Shown: piece after piece, positions 1,508 to 58,093 of the stretch
Numbering within the stretch: position 1 is the stretch's first letter
Layout of the letters: every line of letters starts with the position of its first letter
From: Escherichia virus TH47
DNA: 64,000 nt
Strand: one strand, 5' to 3'
Sequence record: MT446416.1
Notes under the pieces: model-generated
Databases searched by the model: none
The model's input: the letters and a program-made list of their open reading frames with translations, nothing else
What the model was told of the DNA's origin: nothing
Position numbers and translations under genes: made by a program

Positions 1508-1536
1508 GGAGAGCAAATGCTCTCCTTTTCTTTTTT
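1508..1536. terminator. bidirectional rho-independent terminator
   Basis: perfect stem GGAGAGCA/GCTCTCC with A-run upstream and T-run downstream, between convergent genes. Confidence 0.65.
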
Positions 1537-3823
1537 ACGCAATAACTTTTTCTACTGCTTTAGTTCGTTTAGGTTTGATTGCCAATTTACCATCAATCAC
1601 ATCAAACGTTACGTTACCACCATTAACCAGAGAACCACACAACATCTCTTTAGCTAGTGGGACACGGATGTTTTGCTCAATAGTGCGTTTCATTGGACGT
1701 GCACCCATTCCAACTTTAACACCATTTGTTGCCAACCACTCACGAGCCGCTTTGGTCAGTGAAACTTTAACTTTGCGGTCTTTGATTTGTTCATTCAAAC
1801 TTCCCATGAACTTATCAATGATGCTGTCAATCGCTTCGCTGCTTAGGTCTTTGAATGTCACAATACTATCGATACGGTTGATGAATTCAGGTGGCAAGAA
1901 TGCTTTAATCGCTTTATCTTGTGCTGTATCACTACCGCTCATCCCAATACTACGCTTGGTTGAATCTGCTGCACCAAGGTTAGTCGTCATAATAACAGTT
2001 ACGTTATTGAAGTAAACAGTTTTACCTTGTGAACCAGTCAAACGTCCTTCGTCCAGAACCTGTAGGAAGGTTAGTAGTACTTTACGATCAGCTTTTTCGA
2101 TTTCATCGAGCAACAGTACTGCATTCGGGAACTGCTCAATCTTGTCGAGTAGCAGACCGTTACCAGAATCGTGACCAACATAGCCTGGAGGTGAACCAAT
2201 CAGTTTAGCAACAGTATGTTCCTGTGAAAACTCGGACATATCGAAACGAATCAGTTCAGAACCAGTTGCATCAGCCAGTGCTTTGGTAATTTCAGTTTTA
2301 CCAGTACCAGATGGCCCAACAAACATGAATGCACCTTGAACACTTGATTTATCACGCAGACCAGCACGAGCTACCATCACGTTATCAACCAGTTTCTGTA
2401 CTGCTTCTTCTTGACCGTATACACGAGAACGGAGTGCATCTGGTAGATTACGCATACGTTCACTTTCAGTGCAAGCAACCACGTTAATATCTAGGTTTGC
2501 GATACCTGCAACAACTTCTTGAATCAGTGCAACAGTGATGATGTTATCATCAGTTTCACGAGAACGTACTTTCGCTGCCGCCGCATCCATTAGGTCGATT
2601 GCTTTGTCAGGGAAGTGTTTGTTCTTCAGGAACTTATCACTTAGTGTAATAACTGCATCCATTGCTTCAGTACTGAACTCTACGTTATGGAAAGTTTCAT
2701 AAGTAGATTTCAAACCATTCACAATCGCACGGGTTTCATCAATTGATGGCTCAACTACATCAATTTTCATGAAACGACGAGTTAGTGCACTATCTTTTTC
2801 GATGTTTTTACGATATTCATCGTAAGTTGTTGCACCGATTACACGAATCTCACCACGAGATAGTGCAGGTTTGAGCATGTTGCTCATATCCATAGAACCG
2901 TTGCTTGCTGAACCAGCACCAACCATAATATGGATTTCATCGATGAACACAATAGTGTTTTCACGTTTCTTCAGTTCTTTTAGTAGGTTATCGATACGTT
3001 CTTCGAACTCACCACGGTACTTAGTACCAGCAGTCAGTGCACCTACGTTCAGAGACAGAATTTCAACATCTTTAAGATGCTCTGGTACTTCACCATCAGC
3101 GATTGCCTGTGCTAGACCATCAATGATTTGAGTTTTACCAACACCAGCTTCACCAGTCAGGATGGCATTCTTCTTAGTCTTACGGGCCAGAGTTTCAATC
3201 AGTGCAGAAAGCTCTTTCTGGCGACCAATCATTGGGTCAAGTTTACCTTCTTTTGCAAGTGCTGTTAGGTTAGTGGTGTAATCTTCTAAACCTTTTTGTT
3301 TGGACGATGGTTGCTGTTGTGCCACTTTTTTCTCCCCAGTTGGCTCATCACTAATGCTTTGAAGGTTGATTCCGTTGTCGATTGCTTCTACGTGCTTCTG
3401 TAGAGTTCGTGCTGCTTCAGTACAAGTGATACCCTCTTCACGCAATGCTGCTTCTAGTGCAGTATTTGGGAAGGACAAACACTCAAACAGTACAAAATAA
3501 GCATCAATTGAGAAATCATCACGTTTAAGTTGCTCAATTACTGATTTCTTAGAAAGTTCCTGAACTACACGGTTCACGAGAAGTGATGTGCGGTTCGCTT
3601 CATCACCATCAGCACTTTTAGGTGCATGTGGGAATGTTGTATTCTTCAGATATGCAATCAAACGACCGTGTAGGTTGTCTGCATCGATGTTCATATCTTC
3701 AAATACTGCTTTGATGCTATCGATTGTCAGTACTGTAGCACTTAGATGGTCAATAGTCAAGAAGGTATGACCCAGAGAAGTTGCCAGTTCGTCGCTTTTT
3801 TTGAATAATTGGGTAAGATTCAT
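1535..3823 (-). CDS. ClpA-like two-domain AAA+ unfoldase (Clp ATPase family)
   Basis: Clp N-domain-like N-terminus; two Walker A motifs (GEAGVGKT, GPSGTGKT) and Walker B motifs (VFIDEIH, LLLDEIEKA); start placed at ATG with AGGAGA RBS (ORF track starts at upstream GTG 3847). Confidence 0.9.
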   Translation of the reverse strand: MNLTQLFKKSDELATSLGHTFLTIDHLSATVLTIDSIKAVFEDMNIDADNLHGRLIAYLKNTTFPHAPKSADGDEANRTSLLVNRVVQELSKKSVIEQLKRDDFSIDAYFVLFECLSFPNTALEAALREEGITCTEAARTLQKHVEAIDNGINLQSISDEPTGEKKVAQQQPSSKQKGLEDYTTNLTALAKEGKLDPMIGRQKELSALIETLARKTKKNAILTGEAGVGKTQIIDGLAQAIADGEVPEHLKDVEILSLNVGALTAGTKYRGEFEERIDNLLKELKKRENTIVFIDEIHIMVGAGSASNGSMDMSNMLKPALSRGEIRVIGATTYDEYRKNIEKDSALTRRFMKIDVVEPSIDETRAIVNGLKSTYETFHNVEFSTEAMDAVITLSDKFLKNKHFPDKAIDLMDAAAAKVRSRETDDNIITVALIQEVVAGIANLDINVVACTESERMRNLPDALRSRVYGQEEAVQKLVDNVMVARAGLRDKSSVQGAFMFVGPSGTGKTEITKALADATGSELIRFDMSEFSQEHTVAKLIGSPPGYVGHDSGNGLLLDKIEQFPNAVLLLDEIEKADRKVLLTFLQVLDEGRLTGSQGKTVYFNNVTVIMTTNLGAADSTKRSIGMSGSDTAQDKAIKAFLPPEFINRIDSIVTFKDLSSEAIDSIIDKFMGSLNEQIKDRKVKVSLTKAAREWLATNGVKVGMGARPMKRTIEQNIRVPLAKEMLCGSLVNGGNVTFDVIDGKLAIKPKRTKAVEKVIA

Positions 3824-3861
3824 GTATTCTCCTAAATGAGTAGTCACTCTAATTAATAAAC

Positions 3862-3889
3862 ATTATATCACATTCTTTGCGTTTGTCAA
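3862..3889 (-). promoter_or_regulatory. sigma70 consensus promoter (TTGACA-N16-TGaTATAAT) driving the ClpA-like gene
   Basis: minus-strand reading gives TTGACA, 16-nt spacer, extended -10 TGATATAAT, about 35 nt upstream of the ATG; same 13-nt -10 block as the two copies at 27336-27457. Confidence 0.65.
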
Positions 3890-3931
3890 CAAGGTAAATA
3901 AAGATATACCCGATTTATTTTGGAGACAAAC

Positions 3932-5428
3932 ATGACATACAGAATGTGGAAAAAAGGTAGAACCAATGATTACAAGTTCATTGACTCTGCCATAGCAGAA
4001 CAATACAACATCGGTGGTGTTGACATGTGGCTTTATGCCTATGTCGGACCAAAACAAGTCGCTGATAACACTGATTTATCATATGGCGGTGATTATTATG
4101 GTTCAGATAGTACCGTTGTGTCAAGCATTGGTGATTTAATTTTTGGTGACACTCCAAGTCGTAACTATAATCTCGAAGCTATCACCTTAAGTTGCGTCTA
4201 CCAAGTCCAAGAAGCAACTCCTGACTTGAAAATCCCAGGATTGTTCTTCAACTTTAACACTATGGACATCACAATTCATTATAACACAATGATTCAGCGT
4301 TTGGGAAGAAAAATTATGCCAGGTGACGTAATCGAACTCCCTAACTTACGTGATTTTGATGTACTTGGTAAAGATTCTGGTTTAAATCGCTTCTATGTAG
4401 TACAAGATGGGTTTAGAACATCAGAAGGTTACTCAGTTACATGGCAACATCACATTTACAAACTCCGTGTTAAACCTCTTACTGATTCACCAGAGTATTC
4501 AGACCTTCTAGGTAACAATAACTACCCTGATGACCCAGATGAACCAAACAACGGCAATGGTAATACTGATGATGGCTCTTCAGAGAACAGCAGCTATGGT
4601 AATGAAATGGACATTATGAACCGTATCATTATGCAAGCTGATGATGAAGTACCATACATTCATTTTACTAACGAACACTTGTTCGATGACAGACCAGATA
4701 CCGTTGATTTGTCTAAGTATATGCTAAATGGATACGAATTACCAGAGGAACCAGCAAATAAAATGTATTTCCTCAAGAAAACTTACCCAGTACTGAAAGA
4801 ACTATCTAATGATACATGGATTTCTGTAGAAGTCAAGCGTGGAACAATCTTTCCTCGCAAACCGATGGATGGTGACTTCTTCTTTAAAGAAAACGAGGCT
4901 GATGTCACTGGCTTCTCATTGTATCAATACGATAAATCTGCCAAAAAGTGGCTAAATTGTGATGTTGAGTATACTACAGAAAGCACACCACCACAAGGGG
5001 TTGATGATTTTTATATTGAATACAAAGAACCACACATTTATCAGTACTTAAATGGTAAATGGGGAGAACCAGAAGTAACTTACGTTAATGACCCATTCAC
5101 TTCTAATAGTGTTTATGGAAATATCGATTCACAACAAGATTATCGTCCTAAGATTCCTCCAGCACGAGGTACAGTTCCTGAAGGTAATATGTTCCCAAGT
5201 GATGCAGTTGATGGTGATTACTACTATCGTACCGATTATACACCAGTAACCCTATGGGAATACAGTGCATCCAAGAATTCTTGGGTGATTTTCGATTACG
5301 GTGGTAGAAAACCGTGGGAAGGTGCAGATCTTGCTCTAACAGAATTTGTTAATAGCCCGAACCGTGTACCATTACATGATGCAGTTAAACCTAATACAGC
5401 GTATCGTATACATAAGGATTCAGAATGA
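3932..5428 (+). CDS. hypothetical protein, possible virion (neck/tail completion) protein
   Basis: ORF with GGAGA RBS 6 nt before ATG 3932 (track starts at TTG 3920); stop overlaps next start (ATGA); no motif recognised. Confidence 0.6.
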   Translation: MTYRMWKKGRTNDYKFIDSAIAEQYNIGGVDMWLYAYVGPKQVADNTDLSYGGDYYGSDSTVVSSIGDLIFGDTPSRNYNLEAITLSCVYQVQEATPDLKIPGLFFNFNTMDITIHYNTMIQRLGRKIMPGDVIELPNLRDFDVLGKDSGLNRFYVVQDGFRTSEGYSVTWQHHIYKLRVKPLTDSPEYSDLLGNNNYPDDPDEPNNGNGNTDDGSSENSSYGNEMDIMNRIIMQADDEVPYIHFTNEHLFDDRPDTVDLSKYMLNGYELPEEPANKMYFLKKTYPVLKELSNDTWISVEVKRGTIFPRKPMDGDFFFKENEADVTGFSLYQYDKSAKKWLNCDVEYTTESTPPQGVDDFYIEYKEPHIYQYLNGKWGEPEVTYVNDPFTSNSVYGNIDSQQDYRPKIPPARGTVPEGNMFPSDAVDGDYYYRTDYTPVTLWEYSASKNSWVIFDYGGRKPWEGADLALTEFVNSPNRVPLHDAVKPNTAYRIHKDSE

Positions 5429-24241: not shown

Positions 24242-24350
24242 TTTAATACTCTCCATGTATGTTGTTACAAATATAATTATATCACCTTTTTCCAAGCTGT
24301 CCCGCTGAAAAAAGTAGAGAACGGAATTTTCCGTTCTCATTATTTAGTAC

Positions 24351-25760
24351 TTAGCTACGTTGACGCTTTTTGTCAGCTTCATATTCGTAGTGTACAGTTT
24401 CGCCAAATGGTGCTTGTTTGTTAGGATTACTGTGGATAACAAACAGTGTCTTACAGTAATCAGGATCACCCCATGACTGCCACGGCTCACCATCGGTAAA
24501 CATAATAAGCTGTTTAGGCTTATAGTTGTCATGCTTCATATGAACCCATACTGCTTCAAAGTCAGTACCACCACCACCTTTCACTGGATATTCGAGAATC
24601 TTACTCTCTTCACCAGTTTTGTAATCTTTAACAGTATAAACTTCAGTATCGAACGTCATGATACGGATTTTAAATTGTTTAAACTGCTTAGTGATACCCA
24701 GTACTTCACTGATGAAATCACGGAGCATATCTTCAGAGATAGAACCGGATGCATCTAGTGCAATTGCAATATCAATATCATCATCTGGTTTCATGCCTGG
24801 GAAGATTGGATTCCCGTAGAATGAACCAGTACTACCAAAACCAGCACCCCATGAACGACGATTAGGACTTTGATAAGTTGCGTCAGACTTCAACCAGCTA
24901 CGCAGTGTGCGGTGAAGTTTGGAACGCCAGTCAATCTTAGGTTCTTTGAAGTTGTTAATCATACGTGCGATTTCAGCAGGAGTACCACCTGCACGAGCAG
25001 CATTCATCATTGCTGTTTTGAAATCATCCATATAATCACGTTTTTGTTTATCACTTGAACCACCTTCTTGACCTTCTTGTGGAACGTCATGCTGGTCGAT
25101 TGTTGTACCTTTGCCTTTACCATCTTTGATATCACCAAAAGTACCGCGTGATTTACCTTCACCCTCACCACTACCAGCCTGTGGATTTCCTTCACCTTCC
25201 CCGTCTTGATCCTGTTTATCTTCTTCTTCGAGAATGTTATAAATCTCTTCAGCAGTCATACCATCGTACTTTTTATCGTACAGCCATTGGCTTTGGATTT
25301 TACCAATTTTATCACGAACAAGAATCTGGTTAATTGCATAGTCAGCAGCACGGTTATAACGCTGCGGGTCACGCATACCACGACGCAAGAAGTGGTCATA
25401 TGCACAGTGAAGAATCTCATGACAGATAACTGCAATCAGGTTTTCATCAGTCAAACCTTCTGTCATTTCTTTAAGTTGTTCTTCAGTTACTTCAGGATGT
25501 TTCTCACGAATTGCTTCTTCGTATGCGGACTTTTTGGATTGGTCCTGAATACCCATGATGAATTCTACGTTGTAGAATAAATGCTTACCATCTACTGCCA
25601 AAGTACGACACCATGTATTGTTTGCAACTGGACGCAGACGAGAAGCCAGTACACCAAAGAATGGGAATGTTAGCATTAAAGATGTGCGAGCTAAGATCAG
25701 ACGATCTTGACATTCTTTCTGGAGAGCCGGAGTAACATCACTGAAACGTTTATCTGACAT
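24351..25760 (-). CDS. vWA-domain protein with N-terminal HExxH metallopeptidase-like domain (CobT-like)
   Basis: HEILHCAYDH (HExxH) plus MIDAS DASGS in DIDIAIALDASGSISEDM; GAGGAAA RBS; directly downstream of the AAA5 ATPase. Confidence 0.75.
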   Translation of the reverse strand: MSDKRFSDVTPALQKECQDRLILARTSLMLTFPFFGVLASRLRPVANNTWCRTLAVDGKHLFYNVEFIMGIQDQSKKSAYEEAIREKHPEVTEEQLKEMTEGLTDENLIAVICHEILHCAYDHFLRRGMRDPQRYNRAADYAINQILVRDKIGKIQSQWLYDKKYDGMTAEEIYNILEEEDKQDQDGEGEGNPQAGSGEGEGKSRGTFGDIKDGKGKGTTIDQHDVPQEGQEGGSSDKQKRDYMDDFKTAMMNAARAGGTPAEIARMINNFKEPKIDWRSKLHRTLRSWLKSDATYQSPNRRSWGAGFGSTGSFYGNPIFPGMKPDDDIDIAIALDASGSISEDMLRDFISEVLGITKQFKQFKIRIMTFDTEVYTVKDYKTGEESKILEYPVKGGGGTDFEAVWVHMKHDNYKPKQLIMFTDGEPWQSWGDPDYCKTLFVIHSNPNKQAPFGETVHYEYEADKKRQRS

Positions 25761-25835: not shown

Positions 25836-27164
25836 TTAACCAAGAGAGCGTGCTTTACGTACTAGGTCAGAGTACTTCATAACGAAGTCTTTAAACGCTG
25901 GTACATCTTTAATCGTAATCGCTACTTTATGAAGCGTGATGGTACGAATCGCCAGTACTGCCAGTTCTGCTTGAGTTGCAGAGAAGTTATGGTCTAGGAA
26001 GGTGATGAAGTTGTTGCACAGCTTACCCCAATCTTCCACTGGTAGACGTTGTTCTTGCTTCTCATTGTAGAGGTCGATAATTTTGTAAACCAGATTCAGA
26101 GTGATGAAGTAGTTCGCGGAAATATCAAGCGAAGCATCAATCTCTTTAATCTCACCCTGTAGGATGGACATGGTATCTGGTAGTTTAGCTACGTTATCAA
26201 CATACTCGATGTATTCAGTTGCTACGCCTTCACCAACACGACCTGCAATCATCGCACGGAACACTTCTTTATCAATGTTCTTAACTTTCTTCAGATCTTC
26301 GTAGCGTGCTACTGCTTCCCATGAACGTGGAGAAGTACCACCACAGTGAGAAGGATCTTGTGGGCTAAGGGTGTTGAAGTGTTTAGCACCAGTGTTGTTG
26401 ATGAACGCAACAGTTGCTGGGTTCAAACGCTTGCCAATCGCATAATCGTTAATCCAATCTTGATGATAAGGAATCATTTCGATGTGGGTCATACGGTCAC
26501 GCAGTGGTGTAGCTAGAGAGAACGTTACACCGCCATCAGTTTCACGGTTACCTGCTGCGAGAATCAGTGCAGTCTTAGGTAGCTTCATCTCACCAACACA
26601 ACGGTCGAGGATTAGCTGGTAAGACGCTGCCTGTACAATCGGCATTGCAGAGTTGATTTCGTCAAACAGGATAACACCTTTCCAATCATCGGGCAATTTC
26701 AGTACTTTTGGTGCTGCCCACACAACTGCTGTTTCAGCGATGTAATCTTGTGCACTAGCCAGTTCAGATTCAATCAGTTGCTTACCATCCATATCAAGGA
26801 ACACTTTCTCTGGAACTGGAATACCACGAAGGTCACTTGGTTCAATCTGAGACAAACGGAAATCGATAAAGTTAGTGTCTTGGTCGATTAGTTTGGCTTC
26901 AAACGCTGCCAGTTCACGGCGAAGTTGATCGGCATTTTCAGTATCAGCTTCGATTTGTTGTTTCATGAACTCAATTTTTGCCACGTTATCTTTACGCAGT
27001 GGGTAGTTCTCATCAGCGTATTGACGTGCGATAGCAGATTTACCGATACCAGGGCTACCCCAAATCATCAGGCTATCTTGAATCATGTCAGCCAGTGCCA
27101 TTGCTTCTTTAGCTTTCTTAGGAGTCAGTTTTACGTTCAGGATATCGTTGTTTTGAGTAGACAT
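25836..27164 (-). CDS. MoxR/CobS-type AAA+ ATPase (AAA_5 family)
   Basis: Walker A GSPGIGKS, Walker B ILFDEINSA; AAGGAAA RBS. Confidence 0.8.
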   Translation of the reverse strand: MSTQNNDILNVKLTPKKAKEAMALADMIQDSLMIWGSPGIGKSAIARQYADENYPLRKDNVAKIEFMKQQIEADTENADQLRRELAAFEAKLIDQDTNFIDFRLSQIEPSDLRGIPVPEKVFLDMDGKQLIESELASAQDYIAETAVVWAAPKVLKLPDDWKGVILFDEINSAMPIVQAASYQLILDRCVGEMKLPKTALILAAGNRETDGGVTFSLATPLRDRMTHIEMIPYHQDWINDYAIGKRLNPATVAFINNTGAKHFNTLSPQDPSHCGGTSPRSWEAVARYEDLKKVKNIDKEVFRAMIAGRVGEGVATEYIEYVDNVAKLPDTMSILQGEIKEIDASLDISANYFITLNLVYKIIDLYNEKQEQRLPVEDWGKLCNNFITFLDHNFSATQAELAVLAIRTITLHKVAITIKDVPAFKDFVMKYSDLVRKARSLG

Positions 27165-27230
27165 GTATATTTTCCTTTTGTTGGATAAAATCGTTTAGGT
27201 TTCTATTATAGCCAATCCGTGGGCAAAAGT

Positions 27231-27273
27231 AAAGGAACTGTGTTAAAAGAATTTTTAACTTATCAGTTCCTTT
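27231..27273 (-). promoter_or_regulatory. extended palindromic hairpin in the 5' leader of the AAA5 ATPase operon
   Basis: perfect 10-bp stem AAAGGAACTG/CAGTTCCTTT enclosing an inner 7-bp palindrome GTTAAAA/TTTTAAC; lies between the promoters and the start codon. Confidence 0.5.
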
Positions 27274-27335
27274 GTTACTTCATGAATCATCCGTGTATTT
27301 AAAAAGGCATTTCTCTTTGCCGTCTTGATGTGGTC

Positions 27336-27363
27336 ATTATATCACATCGTTCAGGCTTGTCAA
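27336..27363 (-). promoter_or_regulatory. sigma70 consensus promoter, proximal copy (TTGACA-N16-TGaTATAAT)
   Basis: exact -35 and extended -10 with 16-nt spacer and A-rich UP-like tract upstream on the minus strand. Confidence 0.65.
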
Positions 27364-27429
27364 CAACTTTTTTTTATTTCTTTTTCAATCTCACATCTTG
27401 TGATTTTGAAAACTTGCTTCGTGGTGGTC

Positions 27430-27457
27430 ATTATATCACATCATTCGGCGTTGTCAA
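27430..27457 (-). promoter_or_regulatory. sigma70 consensus promoter, distal tandem copy
   Basis: second copy of the same CATTATATCACAT-N8-TTGTCAACA module 94 nt upstream of the first. Confidence 0.65.
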
Positions 27458-27484
27458 CATCTTTTTTTTTCTTTATTTTCGAAG

Positions 27485-45208: not shown

Positions 45209-45317
45209 CACGATAAAATATTATACCACAACTATAACGCATAATCTTATCTCTTTATCATCAAGTGATGTTCAGATACTAGTAATTATATCAGAAGATG
45301 TTAACTTGTCCCAGCTT

Positions 45318-57403: not shown

Positions 57404-58093
57404 TCACTTCGTTCTCTCGTAACTCAAGAAGTCACTACGTTTACTTCGTAAACTAGTTCCTTCTGAAAATGATAATGTACTTTAAAAGCTTGACGGGATT
57501 TGTTGAGGACTATTTCATCCCCCCGCAGGGGAATGAAGGTAATAAAAAAGAGACAATTAAGTCTCTCTTGACGATGATGGCATCGGATATTATCGAATTG
57601 CGAATTTCTCAAATTTTGGACGGATCTTTCTTGTACCAAAATTTAGAGAGCGAAAGCGGGTTGCTCGGTTTCTCTCTATCGCAGTCATATGCAACGGTCG
57701 CTGGTCTTTTCATCAACAGCACTCAGTACTAAACTCTATTCGATCAAAGTAGTACCTGTTCTCAAATTTTGGACGCAACTTTCTTGTAAAATCGCGTCCA
57801 CAATCCTTGAACTCCCTTAGCAAATTCGTAAGGTGCGAACCTTATACATCTATCTAGGAACTCTCTGTGTGCTTATTGGAGTTCTTTATACAGCCGTGTC
57901 GCCGTGATTCGTGGTCTTATCTCGTGTTTGTTTGATTGCCAGTACTCTAACAGGTTTCTTTTGCTGTTCGCTACAACGGTAAAGCTCATCTATCCTTTAC
58001 ATTTTCAAGAGAAGTAGGTTCTCATTATCCATTTTTCAATGTCCGTTGTCATTTTACAATATACATTATATCACTAGGATGTATTATGTCCCG
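57404..58093. other. ~0.7-kb low-coding region with direct repeats, hairpins, a minus-strand terminator and an extended -10 element
   Basis: no ORF over 90 codons; TTCTCAAATTTTGGACG repeated at about 57608 and 57751; hairpin AGAGAC/GTCTCT plus T-run (minus) near 57540-57570; TGATATAATG near 58058-58070. Confidence 0.4.

Follow-up and report, generated by a model that had tools for sequence, protein, structure and literature searches.

The question raised by this locus is whether three promoter-like sites of closely similar sequence, one in front of a ClpA/ClpB-like gene and two in front of a MoxR-like ATPase gene, are copies of one regulatory cassette or promoters that have come to look alike. 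A reading made from the sequence alone had favored duplication over convergence. The window, by which we mean the whole stretch of 64,000 nucleotides of Escherichia virus TH47 (MT446416.1) that was analyzed, comes from an Asteriusvirus jumbo myovirus of E. coli. It is ~99% identical to Ecwhy_1, vB_Ec-M-J and fEgEco12 and 83–86% identical to 121Q, PBECO4 and G17, and its G+C content is 36%. The whole genome of Ecwhy_1 (354,537 bp) was used for genome-wide counts.

The pattern CATTATATCACAT-N9-TTGTCAACA has exactly three perfect matches in the window (3861-3891, 27335-27365 and 27429-27459), all in one orientation, and a scan of the window revealed no further site with up to three mismatches (expectation 0.00, 100 shuffles). 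The sequence-only reading had rightly recognized the block pair three times and its coordinates, 3862-3889 and 27336-27457, are the outer edges of the hexamers; however, the gap between the blocks is 9 nt rather than the 8 nt it gave, and its N8 pattern as written has no match in the window even if three mismatches are allowed. Its minus-strand interpretation was confirmed: each copy reads TGTTGACAA-N9-ATGTGATATAATG, i.e., TTGACA, a 16-nt spacer (1+9+6) and TATAAT, with the -35 and -10 hexamers matching the consensus at six of six positions in all three copies. TGTGA is found immediately 5' of TATAAT in each of them, with TG at -15/-14 and TGTG at -17 to -14. All three are located in short intergenic gaps and are oriented toward the downstream gene, which is preceded by a Shine-Dalgarno sequence and begins with ATG. 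The genome-wide search that had been proposed was run in Ecwhy_1 and returned only these three sites at no more than one mismatch of the 22 specified bases; the next-best sites were two with three mismatches and seven with five. Perfect TTGACA and TATAAT pairs spaced by 16 to 18 nt occur three times in the window versus 0.14 times (maximum 1) in 100 dinucleotide-matched simulations of it, whereas weak promoter-like matches are barely above expectation (45 versus 36.5 in shuffles). Judged by the -35, the -10 and its spacing, the extended -10 and their placement, all three sites are predicted sigma-70 promoters.

The first copy and its neighbors are as follows:
3862 to 3889, minus strand: predicted promoter of the ClpA/ClpB-like gene, with -35 TTGACA at 3889-3884, TG at 3870-3869 and -10 TATAAT at 3867-3862
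1535 to 3823, minus strand: ClpA/ClpB-like double AAA+ gene, 762 aa (Pfam AAA_2 3e-49, AAA, ClpB_D2-small 1e-21, AAA_lid_9)
3894 to 3900, plus strand: late-type promoter-like GTAAATA of the divergent virion structural gene (ATG at 3932)

The ClpA/ClpB-like homologue is annotated as ClpA-like in the records of relatives. Copy 1 sits in a 108-nt divergent intergenic region. Its predicted start is near 3857-3854, and a 5' UTR of ~32 nt with a Shine-Dalgarno sequence leads to the ATG at 3823. The GTAAATA element is arranged back-to-back with the ClpA -35, 4 nt apart, and lies 31 nt before the ATG at 3932. Upstream of copy 1 the sequence is T-rich and has no A-tract (by eye, against the published UP consensus), and no hairpin adjoins this promoter.

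The other two copies form a tandem pair, designated P1 and P2, in a 320-nt gap upstream of the ATPase gene:
27336 to 27363, minus strand: P1, proximal predicted promoter of the MoxR-like ATPase gene, with -35 at 27363-27358 and -10 at 27341-27336 (12 of 12 hexamer matches plus TG)
27430 to 27457, minus strand: P2, distal predicted promoter, 94 nt upstream of P1, with -35 at 27457-27452 and -10 at 27435-27430
27366 to 27388, minus strand: A-tract upstream of the P1 -35 (A8, approximately -47 to -40), resembling a proximal UP subsite as read from the sequence
27460 to 27481, minus strand: A-tract upstream of the P2 -35 (A9), UP-element-like as read from the sequence
25836 to 27164, minus strand: AAA ATPase gene (MoxR / N4 gp24-like), with a weak Pfam AAA match
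24351 to 25760, minus strand: DUF2201_N metallopeptidase and VWA-like gene, second of the unit (Pfam DUF2201_N 4e-36, DUF2201 1e-21)

Related records name the first gene of this unit ATPase, MoxR or gp24-like, and a VWA-like/metallopeptidase protein is the usual partner of MoxR-type ATPases. The likeness of the two A-tracts to UP elements was judged by eye against the published consensus, which is reportedly that of Estrem in 1998. A small conserved hairpin, TCACATCTTGTGA followed by TTTTG, is present on the plus strand between P2 and P1 (27395-27420); it could be a stop for antisense transcription or could lie within the 5' end of the transcript from P2.

Strong extended -10 promoters (TGn or TRTGn) with UP elements include E. 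coli rrnB P1 and the early promoters of T5 and T7, and comparisons of this kind are said to draw on Mitchell in 2003, Voskuil and Chambliss in 1998 and Estrem in 1998. The three sites resemble these sigma-70 promoters in TTGACA, TATAAT and TG at -15/-14, in their placement upstream of genes, in the tandem arrangement and, for P1 and P2, in an A-tract at -40 to -48. They differ in having a spacer of 16 nt instead of the optimal 17 nt, and in that the ClpA copy has no UP-like tract.

The shared features are common in this genome. In Ecwhy_1, nnGACA-s-TATAAT was found on the coding strand 40 times at s = 16, 13 times at s = 17 and 0–4 times at other spacings, versus 1–3 times per spacing on the other strand, and perfect TTGACA-16-TATAAT occurred 19 times on the coding strand and not once on the other. 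Throughout the phage genome, promoters typically have this 16-nt spacing and an extended -10. An early class in the small-ORF region (289-350 kb) has the form TTGACAA-N10-GTACTG-TATAAT-AGTTTACATCAAGG, followed by a GGGGAGAA…TTCTCCC hairpin. It is present in at least 10 copies at 289-307 kb and 333-350 kb of Ecwhy_1, several of which are near-identical over more than 60 nt and are therefore true repeated cassettes; at least five copies of a hairpin-embedded promoter, aaagggtTGACTTAGGTCAGcccttttTGCTATAATtatttcatca, are found in the same regions. In a middle-like class, TG(G/A)GACA takes the place of the -35 and is combined with TG(A/C)TATAAT; its members occupy short gaps upstream of genes for exonuclease, primase, the thymidylate synthase cluster, nudix, PhoH and ClpP, among others. 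Sister promoters of this class in the window are:
24276 to 24303, minus strand: middle-like CGGGACAG-…-GGTGATATAAT with a 16-nt spacer, preceding genes that lead to thymidylate synthase
45285 to 45312, minus strand: middle-like TGGGACAA…TCTGATATAAT, upstream of nudix and glutaredoxin genes
58065 to 58092, minus strand: middle-like CGGGACAT…TAGTGATATAAT, upstream of a 520-nt stretch free of ORFs

The three copies pair the early-type -35 with the middle-like extended -10. Their closest relative genome-wide is TGTAGACAA-N9-CTGTGATATAATA (Ecwhy_1 229409-229436, minus strand), upstream of a ClpP homologue (PF00574, 1e-41). Its block CTTGTAGACAAA is also that of the G17 ClpA promoter, and the core TTGTAGACAAA is found in the A4 ClpA promoter as well. 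As the best genome-wide matches precede ClpA-like, MoxR-like and ClpP genes, we considered a "proteostasis regulon". The matches hint at a promoter type shared by protein-remodeling genes, post hoc and in a small sample, and the -35 elements of ClpA and ClpP do not vary in parallel across lineages; we demoted this idea to a low probability.

Three promoter classes were predicted in the Rak2-like phages CBB and GAP32 by Buttimer et al. 2017 (PMC5259590): an RpoD-like class with an UP element, a "divergent RpoD-like" class with -35 TGAAACG and a late class with ATAAATA. Asteriusvirus belongs to the same phage group and follows the same three-class logic, and its middle-like class corresponds to the divergent class, to which the promoters of the orthologous ATPase and ClpA genes of CBB and GAP32 belong. 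On the other hand, the divergent -35 of Asteriusvirus is TGrGACA and not TGAAACG, and our three sites carry the canonical TTGACA; they share the 16-nt spacing and the TG-extended -10 of that class but lack a non-TTGACA -35.

With regard to late transcription, the 8-mers TATAAATA, ATAAATAT and AATAAATA are enriched 15–18 fold upstream of genes genome-wide, and the late-type motif [AT]TAAATA is located 30–45 nt upstream of the ATG of many structural genes. This motif matches the late ATAAATA predicted for CBB (PMC5259590). Exact TATAAATA is strongly depleted in the window (1 versus 8.1 expected), and as it occurs there only once it was dropped as the late promoter in favor of the looser [AT]TAAATA. 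The picture is suggestive of late promoters of the T4 type whose motif is avoided at other places.

Transcription of T4 proceeds in an early, middle and late cascade. The phage studied here is similar in its sigma-70 -10 that depends on the host polymerase, in a class with an altered -35-region element, in a late TATAAATA-like motif and in a gp55-like sigma factor annotated beside SbcCD homologues. It differs from T4 in having no MotA box, its middle-like element being nnGACA at -35, and in also encoding a sigma-70-like protein. In the latter (Ecwhy_1 1662-2627), Pfam regions 2 and 3 were detected and region 4 was not; it may be the factor that reads the TGrGACA class. For the gp55-like "sigma factor" adjoining the SbcCD homologues Pfam gave no match, and a TGGGACAA promoter lies inside the annotated 5' end of its gene. 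The "putative sigma 54" at Ecwhy_1 190362-190694 (~52.3-52.7 kb of the window) is a ribosome hibernation protein of the S30AE family (PF02482, 7e-11) and is irrelevant here.

To see how the sites vary among relatives, we compared their footprint in G17, A4, ph0011, UE-S1, EJP2 and RaK2. The ClpA promoters of the window, G17, A4 and EJP2 retain xxGACAA, the 16-nt spacing and ATGTGATATAAT, whereas the 9-nt spacer and the leader vary; at the -35, G17 and A4 have TAGACA and EJP2 has GAGACA. P1 and P2 are both retained in five Asteriusvirus lineages, with variable spacers, no Asteriusvirus genome examined lacks the pair, and TTGACA is kept at both in nearly all Asteriusvirus genomes examined and in RaK2 (P1 of ph0011 has TTGACG). 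RaK2 (Alcyoneusvirus) has a single promoter at the ATPase gene, TGTTTGACAA-N9-ATGTGATATAATG with an A-tract, to which P2 aligns. At the ATPase position CBB and GAP32 (Mimasvirus) have TGAAACG-16-(TGTGG)TATAAT, and Erwinia phage Hallingskeid has TTGAGA-18-(ATGTGA)TATAAT; over the orthologous ATPase and ClpA promoters of CBB and GAP32, the -35 is TGAAACG or TGGAACG, the hexamers are 16 nt apart and the -10 is of the TGTGn type. At both loci the genes belong to the core set and stand in synteny in Asteriusvirus, Alcyoneusvirus, Mimasvirus and an Erwinia phage. Drift affects the 9-nt spacer and the flanks and spares the hexamers and ATGTGATATAAT, a pattern that points to promoters under purifying selection. 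As for the ClpP promoter, Ecwhy_1 and A4 have TAGACA at the -35 and G17 has TGGACA. The EJP2 promoter is TTGACAA-N9-ATGTGgTATAAT, also written TTGACAA-N9-ATGTGGTATAAT, so that the "module" occurs there at a different gene.

Taken as a whole, these data are probably best explained if the three sites are functional sigma-70-type promoters, members of the phage's promoter family, with the likeness of the ClpA copy owed to constraint and not to copying. The sequence, its statistics, the placement and the comparative footprint carry this explanation, and from them we infer that the promoters depend on sigma-70, when they are active and how strong they are. From the first minutes of infection the host polymerase, still unmodified and carrying sigma-70, would bind all three sites strongly, with contacts to both hexamers, to the extended -10 and, in the tandem pair, to the UP-like tracts. 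Two AAA+ "protein-handling" units embedded among late structural genes, namely the ClpA-like gene and the MoxR/VWA unit, would then be transcribed independently of the surrounding late operons. The sites belong to the nnGACA-16-TATAAT coding-strand family of ~40 members and would form no separate mobile module. The ClpA copy would resemble the ATPase copies because of shared functional constraint and point substitutions in the -35. Near-consensus promoters can escape slowly and predicted strength is not measured strength; in addition, the absence of an A-tract at the ClpA copy and a conserved terminator-like hairpin that follows P1 and P2, where their output may stop short, fit this explanation less well. 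PA5oct, a related phage, was reported to depend on host RNA polymerase and to have TTGAC and TATAATA promoters.

If the TGrGACA class is read by a phage sigma factor or a modified polymerase, host sigma-70 may be neither the sole nor the principal factor to recognize the three sites. They would then be middle-class promoters used mainly by a phage-reprogrammed polymerase, with a phage sigma-70-like factor or a MotA/AsiA-like system recognizing nnGACA at 16 nt, and the perfect TTGACA would be incidental. Several observations agree with this possibility. The TGrGACA class has the same spacing, TGTGa extended -10 and GACAA core, the -35 of the orthologues is GAGACA, TAGACA or TGAAACG, and the phage encodes the sigma factor with regions 2 and 3 described above. 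However, an extended -10 can suffice for sigma-70, the retention of TTGACA at P1 and P2 in Asteriusvirus and RaK2 is difficult to reconcile with an incidental -35, and the A/T-rich upstream tracts together with the full consensus favor binding by host sigma-70. We consider this alternative somewhat unlikely, even though the divergent class was assigned to DNA-synthesis genes in CBB (PMC5259590).

A different possibility concerns the product of P1 and P2. Two features lie between P1 and the ATPase gene:
27224 to 27273, minus strand: terminator-like hairpin AAAGGAACUG…CAGUUCCUUU followed by ACUUUUG (from folding; G17 annotates a terminator here)
27205 to 27233, minus strand: third, weaker promoter-like TTTACT-17-TATAAT, overlapping the tail of the terminator; no other promoter-like site follows the hairpin

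The hairpin lies ~55 nt past the predicted P1 start, and 60 nt separate it from the start codon of the ATPase gene. Folding of the leader is more stable than that of shuffled sequences (z = -3.15), and the third site is invariant among the Asteriusvirus genomes examined. RaK2, Hallingskeid, GAP32 and CBB have hairpins with other stem sequences and a T-run at the same position. Within Asteriusvirus the leader (27164-27330, minus strand) is almost invariant, the flanking genes being ~85% identical. A[CU]GGAU motifs are present on both sides of the hairpin and recur in RaK2, Hallingskeid, GAP32 and CBB; we take them to resemble CsrA-type GGA sites. A leader peptide, MIHEVTKELIS, was rejected because it is truncated in A4 and RaK2. 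In RaK2, the alignment with Asteriusvirus points to an ATG after AAAAGGAAAATACA (locus ~912 versus the annotated 972), which suggests that the ATPase of RaK2 starts 60 nt upstream of its annotated start.

The conserved hairpin before the ATPase gene means that much of the output of P1 and P2 may stop short, and together with the later weak promoter it raises the possibility that transcripts of the pair end up as an attenuated leader or a short RNA, in which case the third promoter or read-through would supply the ATPase. In its full form this proposal holds that P1 and P2 mainly yield a short non-coding leader or small RNA of ~105 nt from P1 and ~200 nt from P2, which ends at the hairpin and T-run. 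It is compatible with the three sites being sigma-70-type promoters. That the order of promoter, hairpin with T-run and gene is kept in five genera while the stems differ speaks for it, as do the near-invariance of the leader relative to neighboring coding DNA, its folding, the lack of conservation of the small ORF and the motifs that border the hairpin in all genera. Nevertheless, the T-run is interrupted in this phage (ACUUUUG), covariation of the stem was judged by eye from individual folds without a formal count, and the hairpin may merely end the upstream late operon. In addition, searches of Rfam with the whole window at the gathering threshold and with the ATPase leader at E ≤ 1 gave nothing credible. 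On balance, a short RNA as the main product of P1 and P2 seems unlikely.

A hybrid promoter type was also considered. The host-type sigma-70 -35, joined to a middle-class extended -10 at the phage's 16-nt spacing, might confer dual specificity, and P1 and P2 with the terminator might also release a conserved, GGA-flanked leader RNA of ~105 nt with a function of its own. If so, the ClpA-like gene and the MoxR/VWA unit would be transcribed both before and after the polymerase is reprogrammed, and ClpP, which lies behind the closest sister promoter TGTAGACAA-N9-CTGTGATATAATA, would be counted among these protein-remodeling machines. We regard this combination as quite doubtful.

The proposal that all three copies derive from one duplicated and moved cassette would make them similar to the PeSL (promoter-early stem-loop) cassettes of T4-type phages (Arbiol 2010, PMC2839356; Comeau 2014, PMC4122927). 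The likeness is in repeated early-promoter sequences in a large myovirus, whose early region does hold promoter-plus-hairpin repeats and hairpin-embedded promoters that are both PeSL-like, and the 22 identical specified bases exceed the 14 required by the sigma-70 consensus. For P1 and P2, duplication was borne out: their 94-nt units share 71 of 94 positions (shuffles 53.6 +/- 3.0, maximum 62), and the 40 nt upstream are 55% identical, the 95th percentile of all promoter pairs being 42.5%. A local tandem duplication of 94 nt within Asteriusvirus is thus supported as the likely origin of the pair, RaK2 having a single copy. The ClpA copy, however, shares only the core and is not supported as a third member. 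Outside the 22 core bases its identity to P1 and P2 is 0.30 and 0.33 over the upstream 40 nt and 0.20 and 0.37 over the downstream 30 nt, the background for random pairs of phage promoters being 0.30 on average, and in a global alignment with the ATPase copies 50 of 94 positions match, which is below the shuffle mean.

The known PeSL properties are largely absent as well. Sequence shared beyond the core was found only between P1 and P2 and not between the ClpA and ATPase copies; no stem-loop is joined to a promoter, as there is none at ClpA and the hairpin of P1/P2 is at least 55 nt downstream; and, unlike PeSLs, the three sites are at conserved core genes, syntenic across four genera, without associated insertions or deletions and not at variable-gene boundaries.

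Furthermore, the ClpA copy occupies an orthologous, long-standing site. As the TAGACA and GAGACA orthologues keep ATGTGATATAAT and the spacing, the window's ClpA -35 differs from them by point substitutions, and its TTGACA is a single A/T difference from TAGACA. Because the window shares more identity with G17 and A4 than with EJP2, TAGACA probably came first; an ancestral TAGACA at this promoter, without flank homology to the ATPase copies, appears to be the most parsimonious reading of the orthologues. Many members of the promoter family also have the extra shared bases, an A following the -35, ATG-TGA ahead of the -10 and a G behind it, and a TRTGn -16 motif is established for sigma contact. 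In a scan of IMG/VR, the identical 22 core bases were present only in two near-identical contigs, which have no blastn similarity to this phage. The background identity of the flanks, the -35 elements of the orthologues, the EJP2 ClpP promoter and this core in an unrelated phage together indicate that the extra bases reflect family consensus and sigma-contact positions and not copying. A single moved cassette as the source of all three sites is therefore decidedly improbable. Finally, although low G+C and the slight excess of weak matches would allow for some accidental sites in AT-rich DNA, chance is refuted by the expectations for the module and for perfect hexamer pairs, by the strand and spacing bias and by conservation across genera, and has practically no probability left.

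By itself, the presence of sigma-70-type promoters carries little weight, as strong ones are expected in a phage dependent on the host polymerase, and similar promoter classes have already been predicted for CBB and GAP32. What could gain interest is confined to the hybrid reading of dual recognition and to the conserved leader. We found no published promoter analysis for Asteriusvirus in the literature, and the fEgEco12 paper does not contain one. Asteriusvirus genomes lack promoter annotation, for which nnGACA-16-TATAAT on the coding strand is a usable rule, with an early flavor (TTGACA…GTACTG), a middle-like flavor (TGrGACA…TGnTATAAT) and, in addition, late TAAATA. The AAA+/Clp genes inside the late structural block have early-type promoters of their own, which makes the timing of their expression testable. 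The consensus-perfect P1/P2 pair with its UP-like tracts could also serve as a compact strong promoter for engineering in E. coli.

A separate observation was made in the window at 57540-58092 (minus strand). The middle-like promoter at 58092-58065 is followed there by ~520 nt in which ORFs of the same strand do not exceed 38 aa, and the stretch ends in a clean intrinsic terminator, AGAGAGACUUAAUUGUCUCUUUUUUAUU, at ~57567-57540. No Rfam or tRNA match was found for it. The repeat CGUCCAAAAUUUGAGAA is present in it twice, its predicted fold has -129 kcal/mol (z = -2.9), and the corresponding gap of 690 nt in Ecwhy_1 is unannotated. This stretch is a candidate phage non-coding RNA.
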